Below, piece after piece: positions 2,367 to 18,523 of a DNA stretch of 30,396 nucleotides (position 1 is its first letter; each line of letters starts with the position of its first letter). The DNA is from a virus (lineage: Duplodnaviria; Caudoviricetes): positions 1-30,396 of IMG/VR virus record IMGVR_UViG_3300032219_000225; one strand, written 5' to 3'. The position numbers and the translations under genes are program-made. Under the pieces are notes generated by a model. It did not search any database. It had not been told where the DNA came from and worked only from the letters and a program-made list of their open reading frames with translations.

Positions 2367-3044
2367 ATTGATCCGCTATCCATTCTCTTTGCTGCAAATG
2401 CCTGTGTCGCTGCTATTAAGCAGGGGTGTAAGCTATACAAAGACGCTAAAACGTCTTTTATGGAGGTCAAAAAGACTGTTAATGAGGTCGCTGAGATATA
2501 TAAGGAAGTTACTGGGTTTTGGAGTAACTTTAGTAACTTTTTCAAGTCCAGTGAAAAACCCGCCCCGACCAAGCCTGTGGCGAAAAAGGAAGCCTATGTC
2601 GCCGTTGACGAAACCCAAGTCATGGCAGACATCGTCACCCAGCTCTCCAACTTCTTTAGACTGCAAGAACAGCTTGCTGATCACATAAGGGAAGAGGAAG
2701 AGAAAAGCAAAAACGTCTACAACCCTGATGCCAACTTGATGGAAGCCGCCCTAAAGCGGGTCATGGCACAAGACCAGATGGCGTTGCTGGAGACGGAGAT
2801 CAGAGAGGCAATGGTGTACGGCGCTCCTAAAGAAATGGGGGCTTTGTATAGCAAAGTGTTTGAAATGCGGGATGTCATCAAGGTAGAGCAGGACAAAGCA
2901 AGGAAGAAACGGGATGATGAATCATGGCAACGCAAGGAAAGGCAACGTCTTTTAAACGAAAGGCAAGCGTACCTGCTGGCGACTATCCTATTCCTCCTGT
3001 ACATATGGCTCCTCCTCGGCCTCTTAAACAGGACTGGGAGTTAG
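2367..3044 (+). CDS. Coiled-coil protein with a C-terminal transmembrane helix, in the lysis block; probable ATT start
   Basis: The frame of track ORF 2460..3044 stays open upstream to 2361 and reads (I)DPLSILFAANACVAAIKQGCKLYK. The C-terminus is hydrophobic (YLLATILFLLYIWLLLGLL). The start position is uncertain (2367 ATT or 2460 ATG). Confidence 0.7.
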   Translation: MDPLSILFAANACVAAIKQGCKLYKDAKTSFMEVKKTVNEVAEIYKEVTGFWSNFSNFFKSSEKPAPTKPVAKKEAYVAVDETQVMADIVTQLSNFFRLQEQLADHIREEEEKSKNVYNPDANLMEAALKRVMAQDQMALLETEIREAMVYGAPKEMGALYSKVFEMRDVIKVEQDKARKKRDDESWQRKERQRLLNERQAYLLATILFLLYIWLLLGLLNRTGS

Positions 3045-3229
3045 TGATGGGCTGGATTGCTGCTTGTGTGCTTGTGGGTATGCTCCTACCCTTATTGGGT
3101 ATGGTGTACTTGGACGTGCTTCAAATGAAGCAAGAAGCAAAACAGCAGATTGAGAAGATGGAAAAAGTACGCAAAGAAGTTGAAAAGGAAAAACGAGATG
3201 ATCCCAATAGTCGCATCCCTCCTCGGTAG
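2924..3229 (+). CDS. Single-TM protein with a C-terminal coiled coil (lysis accessory, possibly inner-membrane spanin-like)
   Basis: TM segment WIAACVLVGMLLPLLGMVYL followed by a charged heptad-like tail. It fills the gap between the flanking genes. The start may be 2924 or 3047. Confidence 0.7.
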   Translation: MATQGKATSFKRKASVPAGDYPIPPVHMAPPRPLKQDWELVMGWIAACVLVGMLLPLLGMVYLDVLQMKQEAKQQIEKMEKVRKEVEKEKRDDPNSRIPPR

Positions 3230-4050: not shown

Positions 4051-6696
4051 ATGCCCTTACAGAAAATCCAGCTTCGCCCCGGTGTAAACAGAGAGAGCAC
4101 TTCTTACGCCAATGAGGGTGGGTATTACGCATCCAACAAGATTCGGTTTCGTTCAGGTATGCCGGAGAAGATTGGCGGCTGGACAAAAGACACTGGCCCA
4201 AATGTATCAACGCTACAGCCACCTTCATCTTTTACAGCAACAGGCGCTATATCAGGGACAAATCTTACGATTGGTAGCTTAACGAGCGGCACAATTTCAG
4301 TTGGGCAAACCATATCGGGCACTGGTGTTACAAGCAACACAACGATTACTGCGGGGGCCGGCTCTTCTTGGACGGTTTCTATTTCTCAAACAGTAGCCTC
4401 TACAACTATTACAGGTTCTGGTTCTACAGGAACAATTTGGGGCGTATGCCGTGCGCTATGGAACTGGCTGAACTTAGCAAACTATAACTTGCTGGCGCTG
4501 GGAACAAACCTTAAATACTACATACAAAATGGCTCAGGGGGTGGGTTCTACGATATAACCCCCATTCGAGAGTCTGGTGCGCCTGTTACGTTTTCTGCTG
4601 TTACTATTGCGCCATTTAGCACAACCATAACCGTTACAGATGCTGGACATGGAGCGCAGGTTGGGGACTTTGTAACTTTCAGCGGTGCGGTCAGTCTTGG
4701 CGGCAACATAACCGCCTTGATACTAAACAAAGAATATGAAGTAGCCACCTATATAAACAGCAGTCAGTACACAGTCGTGGCCTCTGTTTCTTCTAACGCA
4801 AGTGACACGGGCACAGGTGGCGGTTCAGCAGTGGCTGCGTATCAGATTTCTACTGGCTCAGATATATTTACCATAGGTGTCGGCTGGGGCGCTGGCGGTT
4901 GGGGTGGGTCGCTTGGCCCTGCGGCTACAACTACGTTAAACGGAGCCTTGGCGACTGTGGGCAATACTATTCTGTCAGCGCAAATTGCCGCTGCCGATAC
5001 AACAATTGGAGTTGCCTCTACCGCTACGCTTGCTGCTTCTGGCACTGTTTTGATTGAGAGCGAGATAATTACCTACTCGGGTAAAACAGCCACAACACTT
5101 ACAGGATGCACACGAGGGACAAGTTCTACAACAGCCGCTATACACATTGCGGCAACAGGTGTTATCCAGTATGCCACCTCAACAATCAACGTAGCTGATT
5201 CCACAACATTTGCAGCAGCTTCGCCTACAGGAACTTTCAGCGTTGGCGGAGAAACAATTTCTTACACAGGCAAGGGTTCTGGCACATTTACTGGTTGTGT
5301 TCGCGGCACATCTGGTTATGTAACCGCTCATGCAAGCGGCGCTCTCGTGTCTCAATACGCCTCTACTGCTACTGGGTGGGGTCAAGCGGCCCCCGAAAGT
5401 CAGGGTATTGGTCAACAACTGCGTTTATGGAGTCAGGCAAATTTTGGCGAAGACTTGATATTTAACCCCCGTGGCGGCGGATTGTATTACTGGGCGGTTA
5501 ACGCTAATCCAACGATTTTTGATAGGGGTACTCTGCTTACTGCCGGAGATACTCCAGATATTTGTAACTTTGTCATAGTTTCGGACGCTTCACGTTTTGT
5601 CATTTGCTTTGGCGTAAACGACTACGGCTCCGCACTACAAGATCCCATGTTGGTGCGTTGGTCAGATCAAGAAGACTACACGCAGTGGACACCATCTATT
5701 ACCAACCAAGCAGGCAGCTATACACTTAGCCACGGTTCACAAATTATTACCGCCATACAGACTCGCCAAGAAATTTTGGTGTTGACTGACTCTGCTATCT
5801 ACTCTATGCAGTACCTTGGCCCACCTTATGTTTGGAGCTTCCAGATTATGGGCGACAACATATCTATTGTTGGGCCAAATGCAATAGCAACCGCTAACAA
5901 CATCTCGTACTGGATGGGTACAGACAAGTTCTATATGTACTCAGGTCGTGTTCAAACGCTTCCATGTACTTTGCGTCAGTATGTCTACAACAACATTAAC
6001 CTTGAGCAGTCTTTTCAGTTTGTGGCTGGTACTAACGAAGGTTATAACGAGGTGTGGTGGCAGTATTGTTCTGCGGGTTCTAACGTAATTGACCGGTATG
6101 TTATTTACAACCATCTGGATAACGTCTGGTACTACGGTGACTGGAGCAACTACACAGGCACTGCATTCCAAGGGCGTACAGCTTGGCTTGACAGCGCTTT
6201 ACGCGCACAACCAATGGCAGCTACATACGGAGTGGCTGGCGGCAATGCAAACGCATTACTTGTGTACCACGAATCAGGAGTAGACGACGGCACAGTAAAT
6301 CCAGCAACCCCTATTGTTTCTCAGGTGACCTCATCCGACTTTGACATTGGGGACGGACACAACTTTGGTTTTGTGTGGCGCTTGATTCCTGACTTGAGCT
6401 TTGATGGGTCGGATGTAAATGCACCGACTGTTATGTTCACGGTACTCCCCCGAGCTAACCCCGGGGCAAACTACGGCTCATCAAACAACCCCGACGTTGT
6501 CAGTGCGCAAAATTATGCGGGGCAACGCACCTATGAGGTGCAGCAATTTACTCAGCAGGTGTATGTACGGATTCGTGGTCGCCAGATGGCATTCCAGATA
6601 AGTTCAGGTACGGTGGGTTCCGCCACCTCTGGGCTTGGTGTCCAGTGGCAATTAGGTGTTCCCCGTATAGATATTCGTCCTGACGGTAGGAGATAA
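4051..6696 (+). CDS. Tail hub/nozzle protein (P22 gp10 stabilisation-protein-like) with inserted small beta modules
   Basis: 881 aa; N-terminal PG.NRE.T.Y..EG.....K.RFRSG.PEKIGGW, a propeller-like region (RWSDQED...W.P...NQAGS..L..GS.I), and C-terminal RIDIRPDGRR. It precedes the ejection-protein genes. Confidence 0.75.
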   Translation: MPLQKIQLRPGVNRESTSYANEGGYYASNKIRFRSGMPEKIGGWTKDTGPNVSTLQPPSSFTATGAISGTNLTIGSLTSGTISVGQTISGTGVTSNTTITAGAGSSWTVSISQTVASTTITGSGSTGTIWGVCRALWNWLNLANYNLLALGTNLKYYIQNGSGGGFYDITPIRESGAPVTFSAVTIAPFSTTITVTDAGHGAQVGDFVTFSGAVSLGGNITALILNKEYEVATYINSSQYTVVASVSSNASDTGTGGGSAVAAYQISTGSDIFTIGVGWGAGGWGGSLGPAATTTLNGALATVGNTILSAQIAAADTTIGVASTATLAASGTVLIESEIITYSGKTATTLTGCTRGTSSTTAAIHIAATGVIQYATSTINVADSTTFAAASPTGTFSVGGETISYTGKGSGTFTGCVRGTSGYVTAHASGALVSQYASTATGWGQAAPESQGIGQQLRLWSQANFGEDLIFNPRGGGLYYWAVNANPTIFDRGTLLTAGDTPDICNFVIVSDASRFVICFGVNDYGSALQDPMLVRWSDQEDYTQWTPSITNQAGSYTLSHGSQIITAIQTRQEILVLTDSAIYSMQYLGPPYVWSFQIMGDNISIVGPNAIATANNISYWMGTDKFYMYSGRVQTLPCTLRQYVYNNINLEQSFQFVAGTNEGYNEVWWQYCSAGSNVIDRYVIYNHLDNVWYYGDWSNYTGTAFQGRTAWLDSALRAQPMAATYGVAGGNANALLVYHESGVDDGTVNPATPIVSQVTSSDFDIGDGHNFGFVWRLIPDLSFDGSDVNAPTVMFTVLPRANPGANYGSSNNPDVVSAQNYAGQRTYEVQQFTQQVYVRIRGRQMAFQISSGTVGSATSGLGVQWQLGVPRIDIRPDGRR

Positions 6697-8745: not shown

Positions 8746-9153
8746 ATGCCTTTGCATCACGTTCACCCTAACCACCTCCCAGTTGTATGGCCTGTTGCTC
8801 TACCCCTCCTTAAAAAAGCAATGGACTTAGAGCCGGGTTCACACAGCGAGCAGTTTATTGAATACAGTATCAGAACAGGTAAGACGCATTTGTTGGTATG
8901 GGAAGAACCCGGTGAAGGCATAACCGGTGCTTGCACAATTGAGTTCATTGACTACCCGATGGAGCGCATTGGGCATGTGAACTTGATGGGTGGTAAAGGA
9001 ATTGTCAGAGACTACGTGTTTGATGAAGCCAAAGAATTTATGCGGCTCAACGGTGCAAAAAAAGCCCAATGTTGGGCAAGAGGCTCCCTTGTTGAGATGT
9101 ACAAGAAAATGGGTATGGAAAACACCCACCAAGTAATGAGGATTGAATTATGA
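8746..9153 (+). CDS. GNAT-like virion assembly protein (position and size like P22 gp14 / T7 gp13)
   Basis: 135 aa; V.LMGG, GA....C.AR.S...MYKKMG pattern; located among the ejection genes. Confidence 0.65.
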   Translation: MPLHHVHPNHLPVVWPVALPLLKKAMDLEPGSHSEQFIEYSIRTGKTHLLVWEEPGEGITGACTIEFIDYPMERIGHVNLMGGKGIVRDYVFDEAKEFMRLNGAKKAQCWARGSLVEMYKKMGMENTHQVMRIEL

Positions 9154-11663
9154 AGCGCAGCTACTCTCGTCGTGAGTTATACGCATTGGGCGAACCGCTC
9201 GGTGATTCTGCGACCTATCGCAAAGTTGGTGGCTTAGTCCTTGGTGATGGCGGTGGCGGTGGTGGCAGCGCACCTCCTCCTGACAAACAAACAACCGTAA
9301 CAGAACTGCCTGAATGGGCGCGTCCGTACGCTAAAGATGTCTTAGCCAAAGGCGCTGCTCTTACTGATATTAATCAAAATCCATATCAAACATATGGCGC
9401 AAACCGTATTGCTGGGTTTTCACCCCTTCAACAGATGTCGTTCCAAGGCGCTGCCAATATGCAACCTTCCCAACAATTGGGAACTGGTACAGACCTAGCC
9501 ACAGCCGCAGGTATCGGCGCATTAGGTACAAATTATCAAGCCGGTCGATTTGGCGGAGGTATGTTTGGTCAGGACGCAGCCGACTTCTACATGAACCCCT
9601 ATCAGCAAAATGTCACCGACATTGGTAAACGCGAAGCTGCTCGGCAATCTCAAATTCAAGGTACACAACAACAAGCTCAAGCCACTCAAGCCGGTGCTTT
9701 TGGTGGTAGTCGGGACGCCATTATGCGGGCAGAACGTGAGCGTAATCTTGGTCAGCAGATGTCTGATATTCAAGCTCAAGGCTCAAATGCAGCGTTTACA
9801 AATGCTCAACAACAATTCAATGCCGATCAAGCCCGTCGGATGCAGGCACAACAACTGGGTGAGCAGTCACGCCAATACGGTGCTGGTCTGGGTATGCAGG
9901 GGTTGCAGACTGCTCTACAAAGCGCAGGTCAACTTGGTCAGTTAGGTGGTCAGCAGTTCCAACAAGGCATGGACATTAACAAGTTGCAAAGCGCGTACGG
10001 CGGTCAGATGCAGCAACAAGCCCAGCGTCCTTTGGATCAAGCTTATCAAGATTTCCTGAACCAACAGAACTACCCGTATAAACAGTTGGGCTTCATGTCA
10101 GACATGATCCGTGGCCTGCCGCTGGGTCAGAAATCTACAAGCAGTGTTTACGAGCAAGGCCCGGGCATGGTTCAGACCTTAGCAGGTTTGGGTGGCGCGG
10201 CTTATGGTTTTGGTAAATCAGGACTCTTTGGCAAAGAAGGTGGTCTGATGACCTCCTATGCTGAAGGCGGCGACGTTAAAACATATGCTGGTGACGAAGG
10301 TTCGGTAACAAGCCAACAAAACGTGGAGGGCATCCTCAACAAACTGAGCGATCAGCAGTTGCAGCAGGCTAAAGAATCTGCTTTAAATCGTCGTGATGTT
10401 GAACAAGCTAACATGATTGACGCAGAGATGGCTGAACGTGCCTCGATCCGTGGCGGCTTGGGCGGTGCATTCAATCAAATTCCAGAAGAACGTCAAGAAG
10501 AGATGATGGCTGGCGGCGGTATTGTTGCGTTTGCCCCCGGCGGCACCACATACTTAGATAAAGCAGAAGAAGCACGTAAACAGCAAATGGACTACATTAA
10601 CCAAGCCACTACGCAGCAAACTCCAGAAGAACAAAAAACAAACGTATTGGCGCAACGCGAGGTGATGAAAGACCTGTACGGGCCAAGCATAACGCCAAAA
10701 TATTTGGAAGAAGTAAAAGCAGAACGCACCGCGCTCCCAGAAAAAATGGAAAGCGATAAAGGTCTAGCCTTTGCTATGGCAAGTTTAAAACTGCTAAGCC
10801 GTAAAAAAACAAAGGGTGAAAGCCAAGGCCAACAACTTATCTCTGGATTGGGTGAAGCTGGTGAAGCGTTTGTTGGTGAGGTTGGACGCCTCAAGAAAGA
10901 ACACAAAGAAGCCGACCGCTTACTGCGTCAGTCTGAAATACAACTTGCTACAGCAGATCAGTTGTACAACAACGGCCTGACAGACAAAGCTGTAGCTAAA
11001 GCTGACCAAGCACAGGCATCAAAAGCAAGGGCTGCGGAACTGCACGCTGGTGTTGCAGGCAAAACAGCCGAAATGTACGTTCAACTTGAGAATACAGACC
11101 TCGGTAAAAAAGCCGCTATCAGAGCAGCGGAAATTTCTGCTGGAGCAAGCGAGCGTTCTGCAAGGATATCAGCCGCCAAAGAAACCGATTTACATCGTCA
11201 AACTCGTATCCGCTTCGCTGCGTTGGTTAAACAAGGTAAACCTGCCGACGAACAAACAATGGCGGAAGCCGCTGGAATGGCTGCGGGTGATCTTGGTAAG
11301 TACTCAGGGGTAGACCGAGCAGCAGATGCCAGAGCAGCTTTCTACGACAAAATATCTGACAATGTAGATGCAGGTTTACTTATGGATAGAAAGTACAGGG
11401 AACTGCAAAAAGAAGATAAAAAGACTAATGGTAACGCCGCTCAACAATACCGAGAGCAACGCATTGCAGTGGAAGTGGACAAAGCAAGATCGCAAGGTCA
11501 GCCTACACAAGGACAACCTGCGCCGAATGCACCGGCACAACAGCAAGCAGCCCCCACTGCCGTGCCCACCCTTAACGAATTTTTAGCGGCGGCAAAAAAA
11601 GTAAATCAAGGCGTACCTGATGCGGATTTAATTAAGTACTACAACAACAAATACGGTAGATAA
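9150..11663 (+). CDS. DNA transfer/ejection protein, Gln-rich N-half and helical C-half
   Basis: 837 aa; leader plus poly-Gly, LPEWARPY, YMNPYQQNV, AGAFGGSR and YQDFLNQQNYPYKQL motifs. Confidence 0.75.
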   Translation: MKRSYSRRELYALGEPLGDSATYRKVGGLVLGDGGGGGGSAPPPDKQTTVTELPEWARPYAKDVLAKGAALTDINQNPYQTYGANRIAGFSPLQQMSFQGAANMQPSQQLGTGTDLATAAGIGALGTNYQAGRFGGGMFGQDAADFYMNPYQQNVTDIGKREAARQSQIQGTQQQAQATQAGAFGGSRDAIMRAERERNLGQQMSDIQAQGSNAAFTNAQQQFNADQARRMQAQQLGEQSRQYGAGLGMQGLQTALQSAGQLGQLGGQQFQQGMDINKLQSAYGGQMQQQAQRPLDQAYQDFLNQQNYPYKQLGFMSDMIRGLPLGQKSTSSVYEQGPGMVQTLAGLGGAAYGFGKSGLFGKEGGLMTSYAEGGDVKTYAGDEGSVTSQQNVEGILNKLSDQQLQQAKESALNRRDVEQANMIDAEMAERASIRGGLGGAFNQIPEERQEEMMAGGGIVAFAPGGTTYLDKAEEARKQQMDYINQATTQQTPEEQKTNVLAQREVMKDLYGPSITPKYLEEVKAERTALPEKMESDKGLAFAMASLKLLSRKKTKGESQGQQLISGLGEAGEAFVGEVGRLKKEHKEADRLLRQSEIQLATADQLYNNGLTDKAVAKADQAQASKARAAELHAGVAGKTAEMYVQLENTDLGKKAAIRAAEISAGASERSARISAAKETDLHRQTRIRFAALVKQGKPADEQTMAEAAGMAAGDLGKYSGVDRAADARAAFYDKISDNVDAGLLMDRKYRELQKEDKKTNGNAAQQYREQRIAVEVDKARSQGQPTQGQPAPNAPAQQQAAPTAVPTLNEFLAAAKKVNQGVPDADLIKYYNNKYGR

Positions 11664-11674
11664 AGGGGCTCGGC

Positions 11675-14600
11675 ATGGCGATTATTGACCCGTTTGAAGC
11701 CCAGCAAACGCAACGAAGAGGTATTGTTGATCCCTTTGAGGCGCAGCCTGCCCCGCAAATTGTTGATCCGTTTGCCCCAAAACCTGAGGAAGAAGGGTTC
11801 ATAACTGGGTTAGGTAAATCCATTTACGGCGGCGCAAGAGACACCGGGGGTAGCCTTTACTCTGCTGGTGCTACTGCTGTAGGAGCAAATCAGTCCGTAA
11901 TTGAGTCGGCCCAAGCTGCTGCTGCACGTTCACCAGAGCAAGCCAAGGCACTACAAGCGTACCAAGCTGACATACAAAAACGTAAGCAGGCTGGAGATGA
12001 AGGTCTTTTGGCGGGCATTAAGAACGTGGTGGGGGCTACAGTTGATAACCCCGAAGGCGCTCTACAAATGGTCGTGTCCCAGCTACCTAATACTGCTGTG
12101 GCGTTGGGTGCGGGTGCGGCGGGTGCGGGTACTGGTGCGGCTATAGGTTCTGTAGTTCCCGGTGTAGGCACTGCAATTGGCGGCACAGTTGGGTTCTTGG
12201 TTGGTTTATTTGGCGCAAACACCGCACTTGAGTTAGGCAATAAAGCCCAAGAGAAGGCACGAGACGGTGAGTTTACCGATGCCGAACGCTACGAAGCAAT
12301 GAAAGAGGGCGTCGTCAAAGGGGCGACTATTACTGCTGTTGACGCTGCAACCTTTGGTGCTTCTAAATGGGTTATGGGTACGGCTAACCGAGCGGTAGAA
12401 ACTGCCACGGTGCGTACTATTGAAAGTGCTGGAATTGATGCCGCTAAAGCAACCACTTCTATTAAGGAAGCACAAGCCAAGGCACTGGGAGCAGCCGCTG
12501 GTCAGGGCAAAGAAGCTACTACCGCAGCCGTAGAAAAAGCAACTGTTGAAGCTATGGCTAGAGAGGGACTTACTGACCCCGCACTCGTAGCTTCGATCCG
12601 TCAAGCCCAAGCCAAAGCACTTGAGGGTGTAAATACAGTGGCTAGAAAAGCCGGTCGTGGTGGCGCGGCTCTAGGGTTGGAAAGTACCGGCGAAGGTCTT
12701 GGCGAATACTTAGGTGAGTACGCTGCTACTGGTGAAGCATCGCCAACTGAGGCAGTTCTGGAAGCTTTGGCTGGCCTCTCTATGAGCGTAGCCGAACTGC
12801 ACGGTGCAACAAGGCTTGATAAACCCGGTGCGCTAACAGGCGGCACAAACGCTATTTACTCGCAGTATTCTCGTGCGCTTGATGACCAGTTAAAGGCTGA
12901 AGAAACCAAAGTAACAGAGCAACTGACTGCGCAGTTGGGTAGACCCCCAACAGAGGAGGAACTCAATGCAAAGCTCGACCAACTCTACGGAACACCCGCC
13001 GGTTCTACAGATGTCAGTGGAGGAACTGGAGCTAGCGTTCCAATTCCTAGTGGGGGAGCCCCCGCAGGAGGTACCGCAGGAGCTGGAATACCTGTCGGAG
13101 AAGAACTGGCTACAGATACTGGAGCTGCTGGAGAGGCTGGAGTGGGAAAGAAACCGCAGCTCGGTGCATTAGCTCCCGGTATTACGTTAACGCCCATACC
13201 CTACGAATTCCAATCACAAGCTGGGCAAGGTCAACCTGTTGTAAAAAATGCAGGTGAAAATAACATAATCGACTACAGTGGTAGAAAGATTGTTCTTGCT
13301 GACGTAAACGGCGTTCAAGTGCCGTTCTATTTAAGCACTGGTAGCGGCGGAAAAAAAGATGTGCCTGCCGGTAAGTGGTATCCATTCTTTGGTATCGGCA
13401 GTGACGGCTGGATAAATAAGACCGGCGGCAAAGAGATGGCTGGATACTACGGCAGTGAGGTATTGCGGAACACTGCTTCAATGTTGGACAGCACCATTGG
13501 GGATATTCGTAACGATAGTTCTATACCTAAAGTTGGTAGGACTGGCACGCATATCAACGCAATTAACACTGGTTTTACCCCATCAGAAAACGGAACCGAT
13601 GCTACCGAAACCACGGTGCGTAGCAACATTGCCAATTTGTTAAACCAGATTGACGATAAAGGGCTACTTAACAACGGGTTAGCTGATCTAAAAGCTAAAA
13701 AGGCTGAAGCCAAAAAGATTGCCCGCACTAACTTTGATACTGCACTTGACCAAGTGGGTGAGTATTCTTCTTTGGAGGAAGCATTAGATTCGTACCGTCA
13801 AAATACAATTGATACCCTCATAGACAACGGAGAAAAAAATACCGATGTTCTTGACGCTGCTGGCGATGCGTTTGACAAGATGGTTAGAGAGTATGAAGTA
13901 CCGCAGGAACCTACACCGGCTGCCACCGTCAAAAAGTTTGACCAACTGTCCCCCGCTGAAATAGCGGAGCAAAACAATCTTAAAGCAGAAGTCGCAAAAA
14001 TATCTGATGAGTTAGAGACTCTTGGTGGCGATCCAAACTTTATTAGCGGGATGCGGTTAAATGCACGCAGAGAATCTAAAGTAGTCCTTGATGAAAAAGG
14101 CATGGACTTTTACCGTAGTAAGTTAGAAGAACAACGCCAGTTAAAGGGTAAAGCTCCAGAAAAATTTAGCGAAGAGCGTGGGCTTGGTACGTACTTGCAA
14201 GACAAACCCAAGTCAATTGATAGATACAAAAAGTACGTCACAGGTTCAAGTATTTCTTCTGCATTGGCTAAAGTAAACGCAGCACTCCAAAAATTAACTA
14301 ATTCTCTTAATAATCGCGGGTTTAAAGTTGACGCCATAAACAATGCCACCCCCGATGCCAGCGCAAAAGAAGCCAAGAAACTCCTTTCACAACTTGCTGG
14401 CTCTGCGGAGAGATTGCTTACGAAGCATGAAGCTGTAGCCAAGAACTATAAATCTGCTGACCCAGATGCTGTCAAGGCGGCTGAACGTCAGGTAAACAAC
14501 GACATCAGAGCAATAAATAATTTTCTAGAATCTGAGGAGATGGGTGGGGCGGCGTTTGCTCGCGAAGAGCCCCTGCCGCAGTTGGCGGGTATGCACCCCG

Positions 14601-17600
14601 AGACAGCAACTGCAATCCAAGAGAACGATATCACTGGTGCGTTGCTGGCGATGTCACGTAATACGTCAGGGTTCTTCTCTGATCTTGCCAGACGTTTAGC
14701 AGAACTCAAACTGAAATCTGGTATTAGCTTTGACAACGAGCGCAACTTGGTTCGACGTGCAATTGACCTTAAGACTACACAACAACAAAAGCGTTTATTT
14801 ACATACATACGAGTCACGTACCCAACCTATTACGATAAGTACTTTGAGAACTATGACCGCGAAGAAAACCTTGAAAAAGTTGATGAGGGTTTGCGGGCTA
14901 TTTCTAAATTAAACCTTGGCCCCGTTATCGATGAGTACAACGAGGTACTGGAACAGTACGAAAAGAATATTCCCGGACTCACTGCGCCCGGCGCGTATTT
15001 CCCCCAATTTAATGAAGTCACGTTAAATACCAAGACCCGTACAGGTACGGGTAACCGAGTCATGCTGCATGAGGCTGTGCACGCAGCTACCGTAGCTATG
15101 CTGGCAAAGGACACCACTAAGTTAACGCCAGAACAGCAGCAAGCTGTGCAAGCCTTATGGGACATGTATAGGTACGCCAAAAATGTTTTGCCTCCGGGTC
15201 ATTACGGCATGACAAACATCTACGAATTTGTTTCCGAGGTGTTCACCAATAAAAAATTTCAAGATCAATTAAGAGTCATACCTTACAAGGTAAAAGGTCA
15301 AAAGGGTGGATTTCTTACTGCCTTTATCCAAAAAGTAATGGACTTGTTTGGCATAAACAATCTTGCCTCAAGCGCAATGACTCAAGCGGAAAAACTTTTC
15401 TCTGCGGAAGTACCCAGCACTACTGCTCCATCAGGGCCAAAGTTTGCTAAGGGTAAACGTACTTTAAAACCCAAAGGGCCTGTATCTACTCCAGATACAT
15501 CTCGCACTGCTGAAAGTGTAGCAAGGACTTATATAGACGTAATTAACGACGCCATAAAAGGTCGTACTACTTGGGACGAAGCTCGTAAGGAAATGTCTTC
15601 AACCTTGTGGAGTGCAGAAGGCGGTAACGTCAGGAAGGCCATGCTTGGCTTTTTAAACTTGCGCCAACTTGCCGATTTGACAGCTACAAAGTTCCCGCAA
15701 CTGACCGGTGCAATTAAAGTTATTGAGCAAATGCTTTCATACCGAGGGGCAAAACTTAAACGCGCCGAAAGCACTACAGTTAAATGGATAGCAGCGCAGC
15801 GCAGAGACCCACAGATGTCGGCTTTGATGAGTCGGGTAATGTTGGAAGCAACGATGCGTGGTATCGATCCTGATACTGCTAAAGCAGGCACGCTTAACAA
15901 GCCACTTGAAGATGCATGGAATGCATTAGATAAAGACTTTAAAGAGATCTACCGTGAAGTGCGAGACTTCTACGCCGACTCAGTTAAAGACATGGTGGAC
16001 ACGCTGAAAGAACGTGCAAAGGCACACGGCACACCTACTGAGATTGCACAACGTCTTAAGGATATTGACGCTCAGTTCGGCCCAGATAAATTGGTTAAAC
16101 CCTACTTCCCACTACGTCGTTTTGGCGACCATTGGTTCCAAGTCGGCACAGGTAATTTTAAAGAGTTTTATACATTTGAAAGCCGCTCCACACGCGACTT
16201 GACAATGAATAAGCGCCGTAAAGAACTTATGGCGGGTAATGCGCAGCAGCAAAAAGCAGCAGAAAGTTTATTCGCTGGTAGTGGGACGTCGGATTTGTTT
16301 TCGTCTATGTCTACAACCAAAGTTATTCAAGACGCTCAAAAATTAATAGACAATATCGGTAGCGGATTAAATTTAGCTACTGAGACAGGAGCTTCGGCAG
16401 CAGCAAAGCTCAAAGACGAGATGAAGGATACGCTTAACCAACTGCTGTACATAACACTGCCGCAGACCAGTATGCGTAAGATGTTTATTAATCGTAAGTC
16501 CGTGCAGGGTGCAAGCGAAGACATGTTGCGAGTGTTTGCAACGACCGCCGTACATAGCGCCTATCAGCAATCACGCCTTAAGTATGCAGAAGCATTTTTA
16601 GGTAACTTGGTAAACGCCCGCGAGTACGTTAAGAACTTCCCTTCAGCAAGACAAGCTATATACGACGACTACATAAAAGAAGTAGAAGCACGCACCCAAA
16701 CTATTTTAAGTACTGAAGACACTAGCACCGCAGCAAAGGCGGCGGGTAGGCTATCTGAGGCTACGTTCTATTTCATGTTGTCAGCACCGTTCACCGCAAT
16801 GCTTAACATCATTGGTGCTACCGCCATTGCTATGCCGTACATAGGCGCACGATATGGGTACGCTAAGTCAAACGCTTTGATGCTGAAAAATTTAGGTAAG
16901 TACACAGCTACTGCACCGACTAGAACATTTGCTCCAATGGCAGCGGGTAAATTTCTAGAGGTGCAGTTCCCCTCTATTGTTGAAGGTGGCAAGCTCTCAC
17001 CTATTCTTCAACGTGCGGCGGATTTATTTGTAGCTGACGGTGATATCACTATCTCTCTAACAAACGATATCAACAATTTATCAGAACGCCCATCTGGTTT
17101 GTACACCGGCAATTTTGATAATGTAAAGAAGGTGTTGTCAGGGTTGTTTCACCAATCAGAGCGCTTGAACCGTGAAGTTGTCTTGATGACAACCTTTGAA
17201 CTTGCGTATGAAAAGTTTAGTGATGCAGATAAGACAGATTTACAGGGGGTAATAGAGCGGGATAAAACAACTGGTCAACCTATAAAGTACACCAAAGAAG
17301 AAGCATTTGAAGCGGCTATTGCTGAGTCCCGCGAAATAGCTGGACAAACACTGGGCGACTTTAGCCGACAAATGAAGCCACGGTACTTCACTTCTCCTTT
17401 AATGAGTATTCTGACTAAGTTCAAGCAGTATGCGGTGCTTGCTACATATGTAGTAATGCGTAATCTGTATTTGTCTATTGGTGCGCCATTCTCTAAGAAT
17501 GAACTTAAAGAGTTCCGTGCGCAGTTGGAGAAAGATCTTAAAACTGATCCAGATAAAGATGCAATCGTTAAACAACGTATGGGCGAAATTGAAGGCCAAC

Positions 17601-18523
17601 GCCAAGAGTTGTACAAAGAAGCTCGCCGCCGTATGGCAGGTATCCTAGGCATGACGTTCTTGTATGGCGGTATAGAAGCCATGCCGTTCTTCTCTATGCT
17701 CGGCCCCATAGTAGCTATGTTTGCAGGTGGTGGGGAAGACGAAGAAGACCCAGCTTTATTTGAATGGCATAGCTGGTTCCGTAACTATATGCAAGAAACA
17801 TTTGGTGGTGCTACCGGAGCCATATTAGCTAGAGGTGCTGGTACGGCAGTATCAGGAGGTGCTTTATCAGAGCGCGTAAGCCTTGACCTAAAAGATCTTT
17901 GGTATCGCGATGGCAGGTACTCGCCCGATGTGCGCCAAGGTGTTCTAGAGACTGCAATTGCAAACTCTGGCCCCGTTGTAGGTTTAGGTATGAACTTTAT
18001 AGACGCATATAGTTTGGCAAAAGAAGGTCAACTGGAACGTGCATTTGAAAAGTTTCTTCCTGCGATTGCTGCAAAACCATTGGTCGGTGCTCGTATAGCC
18101 ACTGAAGAGGGGCGAACCCGTAGAGGTATAGAGTTGGCAGGGGACTTCTCTGCGTGGGAGATTGCGATACAGTCGATTGGTTTACAGCCTGAGCGCTTTG
18201 CAATAGCTCAGAAGAATGCCATTGATGCAAAGTTGCACGAACAAAAAGTACTTACTGAAAAGAACGCTCTTCTTAATCGTTTATGGATGGAACGGGACAC
18301 GGATGAATACGACAGCGTCTTGGACAAAATAAGTGACTTTAACGACCGCCACCCAGTCTTGGCAATTACAGGCAAAACTATTCAAGACTCGTTTAAAAAC
18401 CGTGCCAAGAACCAAGCTGTTGCAGAAAACTTAGGAGTGCAGTTGGCAAATCCTAAGATGATTGAGGAAGTAGAACCAAAACTTAGGTACAAACCCTATA
18501 GCGTCTTTGGCAAGAATGAATAA
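11675..18523 (+). CDS. Large polyvalent virion protein (ejection protein with a zincin-like metallopeptidase motif and a PLxRFG domain)
   Basis: 2282 aa; N-terminal DPF repeats, a Gly-zipper hydrophobic segment, HEAVH at 15068-15082 with downstream EFVSE, and PLRRFG at 16109-16126. It is the last gene of the structural arm. Confidence 0.8.
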   Translation: MAIIDPFEAQQTQRRGIVDPFEAQPAPQIVDPFAPKPEEEGFITGLGKSIYGGARDTGGSLYSAGATAVGANQSVIESAQAAAARSPEQAKALQAYQADIQKRKQAGDEGLLAGIKNVVGATVDNPEGALQMVVSQLPNTAVALGAGAAGAGTGAAIGSVVPGVGTAIGGTVGFLVGLFGANTALELGNKAQEKARDGEFTDAERYEAMKEGVVKGATITAVDAATFGASKWVMGTANRAVETATVRTIESAGIDAAKATTSIKEAQAKALGAAAGQGKEATTAAVEKATVEAMAREGLTDPALVASIRQAQAKALEGVNTVARKAGRGGAALGLESTGEGLGEYLGEYAATGEASPTEAVLEALAGLSMSVAELHGATRLDKPGALTGGTNAIYSQYSRALDDQLKAEETKVTEQLTAQLGRPPTEEELNAKLDQLYGTPAGSTDVSGGTGASVPIPSGGAPAGGTAGAGIPVGEELATDTGAAGEAGVGKKPQLGALAPGITLTPIPYEFQSQAGQGQPVVKNAGENNIIDYSGRKIVLADVNGVQVPFYLSTGSGGKKDVPAGKWYPFFGIGSDGWINKTGGKEMAGYYGSEVLRNTASMLDSTIGDIRNDSSIPKVGRTGTHINAINTGFTPSENGTDATETTVRSNIANLLNQIDDKGLLNNGLADLKAKKAEAKKIARTNFDTALDQVGEYSSLEEALDSYRQNTIDTLIDNGEKNTDVLDAAGDAFDKMVREYEVPQEPTPAATVKKFDQLSPAEIAEQNNLKAEVAKISDELETLGGDPNFISGMRLNARRESKVVLDEKGMDFYRSKLEEQRQLKGKAPEKFSEERGLGTYLQDKPKSIDRYKKYVTGSSISSALAKVNAALQKLTNSLNNRGFKVDAINNATPDASAKEAKKLLSQLAGSAERLLTKHEAVAKNYKSADPDAVKAAERQVNNDIRAINNFLESEEMGGAAFAREEPLPQLAGMHPETATAIQENDITGALLAMSRNTSGFFSDLARRLAELKLKSGISFDNERNLVRRAIDLKTTQQQKRLFTYIRVTYPTYYDKYFENYDREENLEKVDEGLRAISKLNLGPVIDEYNEVLEQYEKNIPGLTAPGAYFPQFNEVTLNTKTRTGTGNRVMLHEAVHAATVAMLAKDTTKLTPEQQQAVQALWDMYRYAKNVLPPGHYGMTNIYEFVSEVFTNKKFQDQLRVIPYKVKGQKGGFLTAFIQKVMDLFGINNLASSAMTQAEKLFSAEVPSTTAPSGPKFAKGKRTLKPKGPVSTPDTSRTAESVARTYIDVINDAIKGRTTWDEARKEMSSTLWSAEGGNVRKAMLGFLNLRQLADLTATKFPQLTGAIKVIEQMLSYRGAKLKRAESTTVKWIAAQRRDPQMSALMSRVMLEATMRGIDPDTAKAGTLNKPLEDAWNALDKDFKEIYREVRDFYADSVKDMVDTLKERAKAHGTPTEIAQRLKDIDAQFGPDKLVKPYFPLRRFGDHWFQVGTGNFKEFYTFESRSTRDLTMNKRRKELMAGNAQQQKAAESLFAGSGTSDLFSSMSTTKVIQDAQKLIDNIGSGLNLATETGASAAAKLKDEMKDTLNQLLYITLPQTSMRKMFINRKSVQGASEDMLRVFATTAVHSAYQQSRLKYAEAFLGNLVNAREYVKNFPSARQAIYDDYIKEVEARTQTILSTEDTSTAAKAAGRLSEATFYFMLSAPFTAMLNIIGATAIAMPYIGARYGYAKSNALMLKNLGKYTATAPTRTFAPMAAGKFLEVQFPSIVEGGKLSPILQRAADLFVADGDITISLTNDINNLSERPSGLYTGNFDNVKKVLSGLFHQSERLNREVVLMTTFELAYEKFSDADKTDLQGVIERDKTTGQPIKYTKEEAFEAAIAESREIAGQTLGDFSRQMKPRYFTSPLMSILTKFKQYAVLATYVVMRNLYLSIGAPFSKNELKEFRAQLEKDLKTDPDKDAIVKQRMGEIEGQRQELYKEARRRMAGILGMTFLYGGIEAMPFFSMLGPIVAMFAGGGEDEEDPALFEWHSWFRNYMQETFGGATGAILARGAGTAVSGGALSERVSLDLKDLWYRDGRYSPDVRQGVLETAIANSGPVVGLGMNFIDAYSLAKEGQLERAFEKFLPAIAAKPLVGARIATEEGRTRRGIELAGDFSAWEIAIQSIGLQPERFAIAQKNAIDAKLHEQKVLTEKNALLNRLWMERDTDEYDSVLDKISDFNDRHPVLAITGKTIQDSFKNRAKNQAVAENLGVQLANPKMIEEVEPKLRYKPYSVFGKNE
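12966..13172 (+). CDS. Nested 68-aa acidic helical protein overprinted in the +1 frame of the large virion gene
   Basis: AGGAGG at 12954-12959, 6 nt before the ATG. Glu/Leu-rich product; the host frame is a low-complexity Gly/Ala/Pro linker over the same span. Confidence 0.65.
   Translation: MQSSTNSTEHPPVLQMSVEELELAFQFLVGEPPQEVPQELEYLSEKNWLQILELLERLEWERNRSSVH

Follow-up and report, generated by a model that had tools for sequence, protein, structure and literature searches.

The stretch of viral DNA analysed here (IMG/VR record IMGVR_UViG_3300032219_000225, positions 1 to 30,396; 30,396 nt in all, hereafter the window) is a phage fragment with lysis and virion genes on the plus strand and genes for primase, helicase, exonuclease and polymerase A on the minus strand. 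A DNA-ejection-protein gene (9150..11663, plus strand; PHROG 4287, E 8e-17) is followed on the same strand by a giant gene (11675..18523), which encodes a large polyvalent virion protein of 2282 aa, annotated as DarB-like and likely ejected. This assignment was based on a match to Pfam LPD39 (E 1e-15, residues 1317-1465), on PHROG 10089 and other PHROG matches, and on the C-terminal half of the protein, which shares 21-25% identity with proteins of cultured podophages labelled DarB-like or structural. The N-terminal, Gly/Ala-rich region of the giant protein (11675..12964, plus strand) is 52% identical to its counterpart in phage L005, which does not carry the small nested gene described below. 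Directly behind that small gene lies a 140-aa cargo domain (13247..13669, plus strand; residues 525-665), which had no Pfam match. This domain contains aromatic and glycine motifs, is well conserved in close relatives and is found in other contexts in run contigs. It is followed on the plus strand by an HExxH metallopeptidase-like domain (14618..15439), of the MPTase type as judged by motif and context, in which H1132, E1133, H1136 and the distal E1184 are invariant in alignments, and by the LPD39 domain identified with Pfam (15623..16069), where a C-terminal core of about 1000 aa begins. The combination of an LPD, a peptidase-like domain and variable domains in one polypeptide encoded in a late-gene block places the giant protein among the large polyvalent proteins. 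The DarB antirestriction protein itself was considered and rejected, as the adenine methylase and SNF2 helicase dyad is absent and LPD39 is the only Pfam match on the 2282-aa protein. The DarB-like PHROG match is limited to the C-terminal 300 aa, and in view of the missing methylase and helicase matches 'DarB-like' is a database label only. Two genome bins disagree on the bacterial host of the phage (Polaromonas versus Ca. Nanopelagicales), and the runs with matching DNA are mostly labelled as freshwater metagenomes.

Within the giant gene, a first-pass annotation of the window had pointed to an AGGAGG sequence followed after 6 nt by an ATG that opens a 68-codon frame, and the window sequence confirmed this arrangement (12954-13172). 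The Shine-Dalgarno (SD) sequence (12954..12959, plus strand) contributes to EEELNAK in the main frame. The nested gene (12966..13172, plus strand) starts at ATG 12966, ends with a TAG stop at 13172 and is in the +1 frame relative to the 2282-aa ORF. It has an open frame, its own start codon and SD, and a position wholly inside another gene, as expected of an embedded gene. AGGAGG occurs three times on the plus strand of the window, and the copy belonging to the nested gene is the only one to be followed by an ATG within 14 nt. At 12300-13600, neither a sigma-70 promoter nor a terminator consensus was found. Across the nested span (12965..13174, plus strand) the main frame of the giant gene reads NAKLDQLYGTPAGSTDVSGG...QLGALA. 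The observation that the main frame turns into a low-complexity linker here agrees with its composition, 1489 of the 2090 main-frame residues over the core being G, A, P, V or T in 41 distinct relatives. An antisense ORF of 70 codons (12985-13197, minus strand) overlaps the nested gene and has a counterpart of 93 codons at the same place in L001; it is probably a shadow.

Three of the 127 stop-to-stop stretches in the +1 frame of the giant gene comprise 68 codons or more, and the length of the nested ORF by itself is not beyond chance. The case for a gene therefore rests on conservation and on the retention of its start signals in relatives. As a control, the window was compared with L003, a locus picked by its main frame. 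In the 12 bins outside the nested ORF, main-frame pS was 0.23-0.49 and pN 0.007-0.071, and the +1 frame contained 3-20 stops per bin. Over the nested ORF, the main frame showed a pS of 0.089 and a pN of 0.198, and the +1 frame a pS of 0.338 and a pN of 0.111. Main-frame pN was thus far below pS in 12 of the 13 bins, and the order was reversed only over the nested ORF. Constraint follows the +1 frame over the nested span and the main frame elsewhere, which bears out the proposal that selection acts on the nested frame. Among 41 distinct cores, 814 of 820 pairs showed stronger conservation of the nested peptide than of the main frame, although these pairs share ancestry and are non-independent, and part of the 41-sequence set had been chosen by the peptide. 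The 19 pairs with at least 90% nucleotide identity gave a pN/pS of 0.11 for the nested frame, against 4.5 for the main frame. In DNA contigs of four runs, relatives diverge more over the nested span, and two listed RNA runs contain 5-6% of the words, as contigs.

Instead of stops or missing signals in the +1 frame, 122 of the 126 distinct hosts have a start codon (ATG or GTG) ahead of the core together with an SD of at least 4 nt, which measures at least 5 nt in 86. The SD background amounted to 10.4% per +1 start codon, a figure that is not like-for-like since the scoring of nested genes accepted any start 54-79 codons before the stop. A chance ORF, the mere shadow of a codon-biased linker, would suit the lengths that the +1 frame reaches by chance, but it is refuted by the comparative data and has practically no probability left: the pN/pS reversal is frame-specific, the family comprises 225 clusters, SD, start and stop are conserved in loci with a GC content from 33% to 60%, and a free-standing copy exists. 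Judged from these substitution patterns, the 68-codon frame is an independent gene under purifying selection inside the giant gene. Because the reversal is frame-specific and the nested peptide is conserved, we read the main-frame linker as a by-product of the nested gene, a passive second reading rich in G, A, P, V and T.

The first loci were chosen by the N-terminus of the giant protein alone, blind to the nested frame, and 15 of the 17 contained a related +1 ORF with an SD; the remaining two represent one GC-rich phage. Profile searches enlarged the family to 160 clusters at 90% identity and to 225 at 50% identity, at least one listed match of the latter set (P0229) being a repeat protein and a non-member. 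The expectation that homologues of the peptide would likewise be nested, with SD and start conserved, held for the members obtained by these profile searches, but tblastn of the peptide or of a central member gave no match among 50,697 phage records. Profile scans of the giant genes of six cultured phages and MinM2 detected no member either (PEp14 nt 2901, E 0.6), the giant genes of KPP25 and RHph_TM27A lying outside the scan. The gene was +1-nested in a giant gene in 58 of 58 matches (59 loci plus the window), in 68 of 68 loci (53 distinct) and in 10 of 10 metagenome loci, and in 126 distinct hosts overall. Its position is constant, between the N-terminal region and the cargo, with a median of 143 codons behind a Gly/Ala-rich N-terminal module in the 90 hosts where that module was detected. 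The placement just before the variable cargo domains, noticed originally in the window, was found in all nested hosts, the gene lying at the front of the cargo region. In L023 the giant gene is interrupted ahead of the nested one by an in-frame stop (957-959), a mutation or an assembly error.

To obtain an unbiased frequency, the best 80 of 527 confirmed loci were taken by their upstream ejection gene, blind to the nested frame, and 22 were left out as incomplete or duplicate. The nested gene was present in 34 of the resulting 58 giants and absent from 24; 34/58 is a lower bound for presence of the gene, as the DNA behind the giant allowed a free-standing copy to be excluded in only 6 of 25 loci without a nested one. 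The presence label changes 9 times on a quick and unfinished tree of the neighbour gene, 8 of the changes being forced by strong branches, which suggests at least 8-9 gains or losses of the nested gene. Near relatives by the upstream ejection gene (L083/L089 and L107/L129) differ in having it.

One member of the family is free-standing. It is located at 7001-7195 of L219, has its own SD (AGGAGGT) and starts 34 nt behind the stop of the giant gene, as the last plus-strand gene before a convergent replication block with a primase-sized ORF. The L219 giant protein has 2044 aa, and its C-terminal 1200 aa are 45% identical to those of L162, where the gene is nested. The first-pass annotation had described an overprinted gene with its own strong RBS. 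The nested gene and its RBS are real, but the small gene has a free-standing form too, so that 'overprinted' probably reverses the direction and an older small gene may have been captured by the giant one. Capture is favoured by the unconstrained host frame over the span and by the free-standing copy, a single case. A further explanation, a programmed +1 frameshift that fuses an N-terminal fragment of the giant protein to the peptide, or a frame that only tunes translation of the giant, is favoured by two database proteins, P0200 and P0230, in which main-frame giant sequence is joined to the nested peptide. These fusions are likely indels in assemblies. The SD and start in 122 of 126 hosts, the free-standing copy and the conservation at the amino acid level speak against it; moreover, the +1 frame is open for at most 62 codons in 26 of 126 hosts, and a stop directly precedes the ATG in L046 and L050. 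We consider frameshifting or translational tuning very unlikely.

The family core comprises 57 residues, arranged as a helix, a proline-rich loop, a long helix and a free C-terminal S-x-[LVI]-[HQ]. L5, E11, A13, L17, P26, L29, L32, W37, L40, L44, L47 and E50 are kept in at least 90% of 102 sequences. Predicted models consist of two main helices with the proline-rich loop and a short turn between them (pLDDT 74 for the window protein and 87 for a central member). The median net charge of the family is −5, and these models together with the charge agree with the acidic, helical product predicted originally; the 68-aa product has no cysteine. Pfam and PHROGs gave no family match for the peptide, one of 120 members having a weak match in each. 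No match was found among solved sequences (best E 0.68), no usable match for a homologue in the Atlas, and none for the predicted model at E ≤0.001 with Foldseek. The best structural match had a Z score of 4.6 (rmsd 2.4-4.3, 50-60 aligned) and was among small helical domains.

Whereas the N-terminus of the family varies in length, the C-terminus is fixed, with a distance of 20 from the tryptophan to the end in 118 of 120 members. The last residue is H in 75 and Q in 51 of the 126 DNA-confirmed genes, with all four CAN codons used, and the penultimate residue is L, V or I in 123. Among 142 distant proteins, 94 end in H, 40 in Q and 4 in N. The window protein ends in SVH, and position −3 in the family is mostly P, R, S or Q. 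A subfamily (L220, L222-L225, L228 and L229) ends in IN instead of [LV][HQ], so Asn is tolerated at the end too. According to PMC11986505, Lon prefers a terminal His, and its substrates end in x-L/I-L/I/V-H, TVH and TLH being among the ends tabulated there. A change of the end from H to Q prolonged the half-life of a reporter from 152 to 402 min with the one Lon tested (PMC11986505, Table S1). The suggestion that the V-H end recalls a Lon degron was therefore weakened, 51 of 126 genes ending in Q, a poor Lon end in the one published test; a terminal His behind a hydrophobic residue is present in the window and in 75 of 126 genes, and His is the last residue of 94 of 142 distant proteins. On sequence, the degron idea would fit the window member and the distant members and not the large Q group. 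The likeness to the C-terminal His Lon degrons of the SulA/Smg type is the free C-terminus with a hydrophobic-His end, and the difference is that about 40% of the DNA-confirmed members end in Q, which is weak in the assay of PMC11986505.

These observations bear on a host-directed role, in which the free C-terminal end of the product would engage a target in the host. The product might then be, for instance, a short-lived substrate of Lon, a decoy or a modulator that protects late proteins, and nesting would provide late timing only. The fixed distance to the end, the H or Q end in all 126 genes, the hydrophobic penultimate residue, the His of most distant members and the substrate ends reported in PMC11986505 are consistent with such a role, and the patchy distribution would suit a host-dependent accessory. 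Against it are the Q ends with their longer half-life in that source, the disagreement of the genome bins on the bacterial host, and the conserved W, E and L of both helices, which require a role beyond the tail. We regard a host target as unlikely, at about one chance in five.

We favour, tentatively and at somewhat less than an even chance, the view that the product, small and predicted to be helical, serves the giant protein as an accessory, a chaperone or loading helper that would act late in infection with any cargo. This view is preferred because the constant feature of the family is its tie to the giant gene, in which it is nested or directly behind which it lies. The nested gene would be translated from its own RBS on the late mRNA, the product may bind the giant protein, and the fixed C-terminal [LVI][HQ] could be a docking end or a turnover signal. 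Occurrence of the gene was independent of cargo and core type in 20 nested hosts scanned with Pfam, in which the core was LPD39 in 13, LPD38 in 5 and neither in 2, and the cargo was ART, HATPase or ddrB-ParB in a few each, or no named cargo. The compact helical models (pLDDT 74 and 87) also argue for an accessory, and P1 Ulx provides a precedent of a small helper for a giant head protein (PMC9024508). Several observations speak against it. No giant-protein domain is common to all hosts, so none stands out as a partner surface; the LPD39-type core, for instance, is present in 67 of 106 nested hosts and in 1 of 22 others. The N-terminal region of the window protein is present in a phage without the gene, in most other hosts the N-terminal module did not align with it, and 24 of 58 giants have no nested copy. 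Nor did a search for one domain co-occurring just upstream single out a partner: it gave several unrelated spacer modules, each present in 2-29 of 120 nested hosts and in 0 of 25 others, and none is universal. Adjacency to the giant gene would be equally expected of any late gene with the same timing requirement. An extended scenario, in which an old, widespread small gene was engulfed by the giant one and became a built-in chaperone, while the surrounding N-terminal region, cargo and C-terminal core were swapped, the [LVI][HQ] tail set its lifetime through a host protease, and the linkers of giant ejection genes came to hold a second gene layer, is compatible with the sequences and is perhaps true, though we think it doubtful.

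Alternatively, the partner may be a late protein other than the giant, such as the upstream ejection protein, the portal or the capsid, and the product a minor component of the virion or of its assembly. The gene is always in the late block, and the lack of a giant domain common to all hosts would be explained. Yet the non-nested copy still adjoins the giant gene (one case, L219), and L083/L089 and L107/L129, close by their ejection gene, differ in having it; a partner of this kind seems rather improbable, slightly more so than a host target. It is more improbable still that the product inhibits the HExxH metallopeptidase of the giant protein until packaging by placing its C-terminal His at the zinc. 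No domain is shared more widely than the peptidase, its profile matching 94 and an HExxH motif being present in 99 of 106 near-complete nested hosts. However, Gln is no usual substitute for a zinc-binding His, the 7 of 106 near-complete hosts without HExxH keep the gene, and HExxH occurs in 17 of 22 hosts without a nested copy. Selection on the nested frame was also seen in pairs without HExxH (pS 0.307 and pN 0.024 for L178/L186; pS 0.505 and pN 0.098 for L118/L122), being weaker in L046/L050 (pS 0.282, pN 0.168).

The first-pass annotation had proposed an embedded antidote for an effector domain encoded just behind the nested gene. The gene's place ahead of the cargo, seen in every nested host, and the ADP-ribosyltransferase domain in 2 of 20 hosts would suit such a role. 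An antidote predicts co-occurrence with one cargo, yet the cargo domain of the window was present in 4 of the 106 near-complete nested hosts and in none of 22 others, and the remaining cargoes are unrelated while the peptide is conserved. The nested peptide of L023, 77% identical to that of the window, is followed by a different sequence. The antidote is therefore not supported, and its probability is small, marginally below that of frameshifting. An effector-immunity or toxin-antitoxin pair was rejected likewise, as co-occurrence with one cognate effector domain was not observed.

Further +1 ORFs of other kinds were noticed in giant genes. Erwinia phage PEp14 (L063) has three that are protein-like, preceded by an SD and unannotated (2901-3131, 5139-5456 and 11094-11318) in its gene for a DarB-like protein of 4914 aa. 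The 105-aa product matched PHROG 938 (E 2e-19) and weakly, below the cut-off, TnpV (E 4e-4); the 76-aa product ends in LTLH. Protein-like +1 ORFs with an SD, absent from the RefSeq feature tables, were also found in the giant genes of Sinorhizobium phage PBC5 (L062, 11756-11959, 67 aa), where the GenBank record lists orf24 and orf25 under the match, and of Pseudomonas phage Skulduggery (L064, 8823-9212, 129 aa). Others with an SD are located in L138 (10527-10760), L140 (12326-12496 and 12506-12694), L144 (16090-16260) and L005 (12777-12974), some of them in hosts without the nested family.

Taken as a whole, the family, which lies inside giant virion genes and has no match in Pfam, PHROGs or among known folds, comprises at least 225 clusters (at least one non-member included); software that predicts genes without allowing overlaps will often miss it. 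It explains G/A/P/V/T linkers of giant proteins as shadows of a second gene, and with nested and free-standing states in related phages it offers a clean natural case of gene nesting. A helper role, if true, would bear on the solubility of polyvalent proteins of 200-300 kDa and on their loading into podophage heads. The protein-like +1 ORFs of the cultured phages PBC5, Skulduggery and PEp14 make the general idea testable.

In phage lambda, Rz1 lies in the +1 frame of Rz. The nested gene shares the arrangement described for embedded spanin genes (PMC9144972, PMC10269572), in which a complete small gene with a start of its own lies within a larger, same-strand late gene. Here, however, the host is a polyvalent virion protein of 1,600-3,100 aa, the product is acidic and helical, and the host frame is a passive linker. 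An embedded spanin of the Rz1 type was rejected, since the host is an LPD39 protein, the product has no cysteine and none of 120 members matched a spanin family. The giant protein shares LPD39, an HExxH peptidase-like domain, variable cargo and a late-gene context with the large polyvalent proteins of Iyer et al. 2017 (PMC5512222), and the word 'overlap' does not occur in the main text of that paper. Titles and the beginnings of abstracts, mostly of the open literature, contained no account of genes embedded in those for polyvalent or ejection proteins, so an earlier mention is possible. Embedded genes and polyvalent proteins are already known; the nested family itself appears to be new from these sequence comparisons. 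For the function proposed here the closest parallel is P1 Ulx, a 17 kDa protein tabulated in PMC9024508 as 'aids DarB localization'. Ulx is encoded by a separate gene, and the nested family has no PHROG or Pfam link to it; the likeness is that the gene for a small protein adjoins the one for a giant protein packaged in the head, and that the small protein is proposed to assist the giant's entry into the virion, which is the role favoured here.
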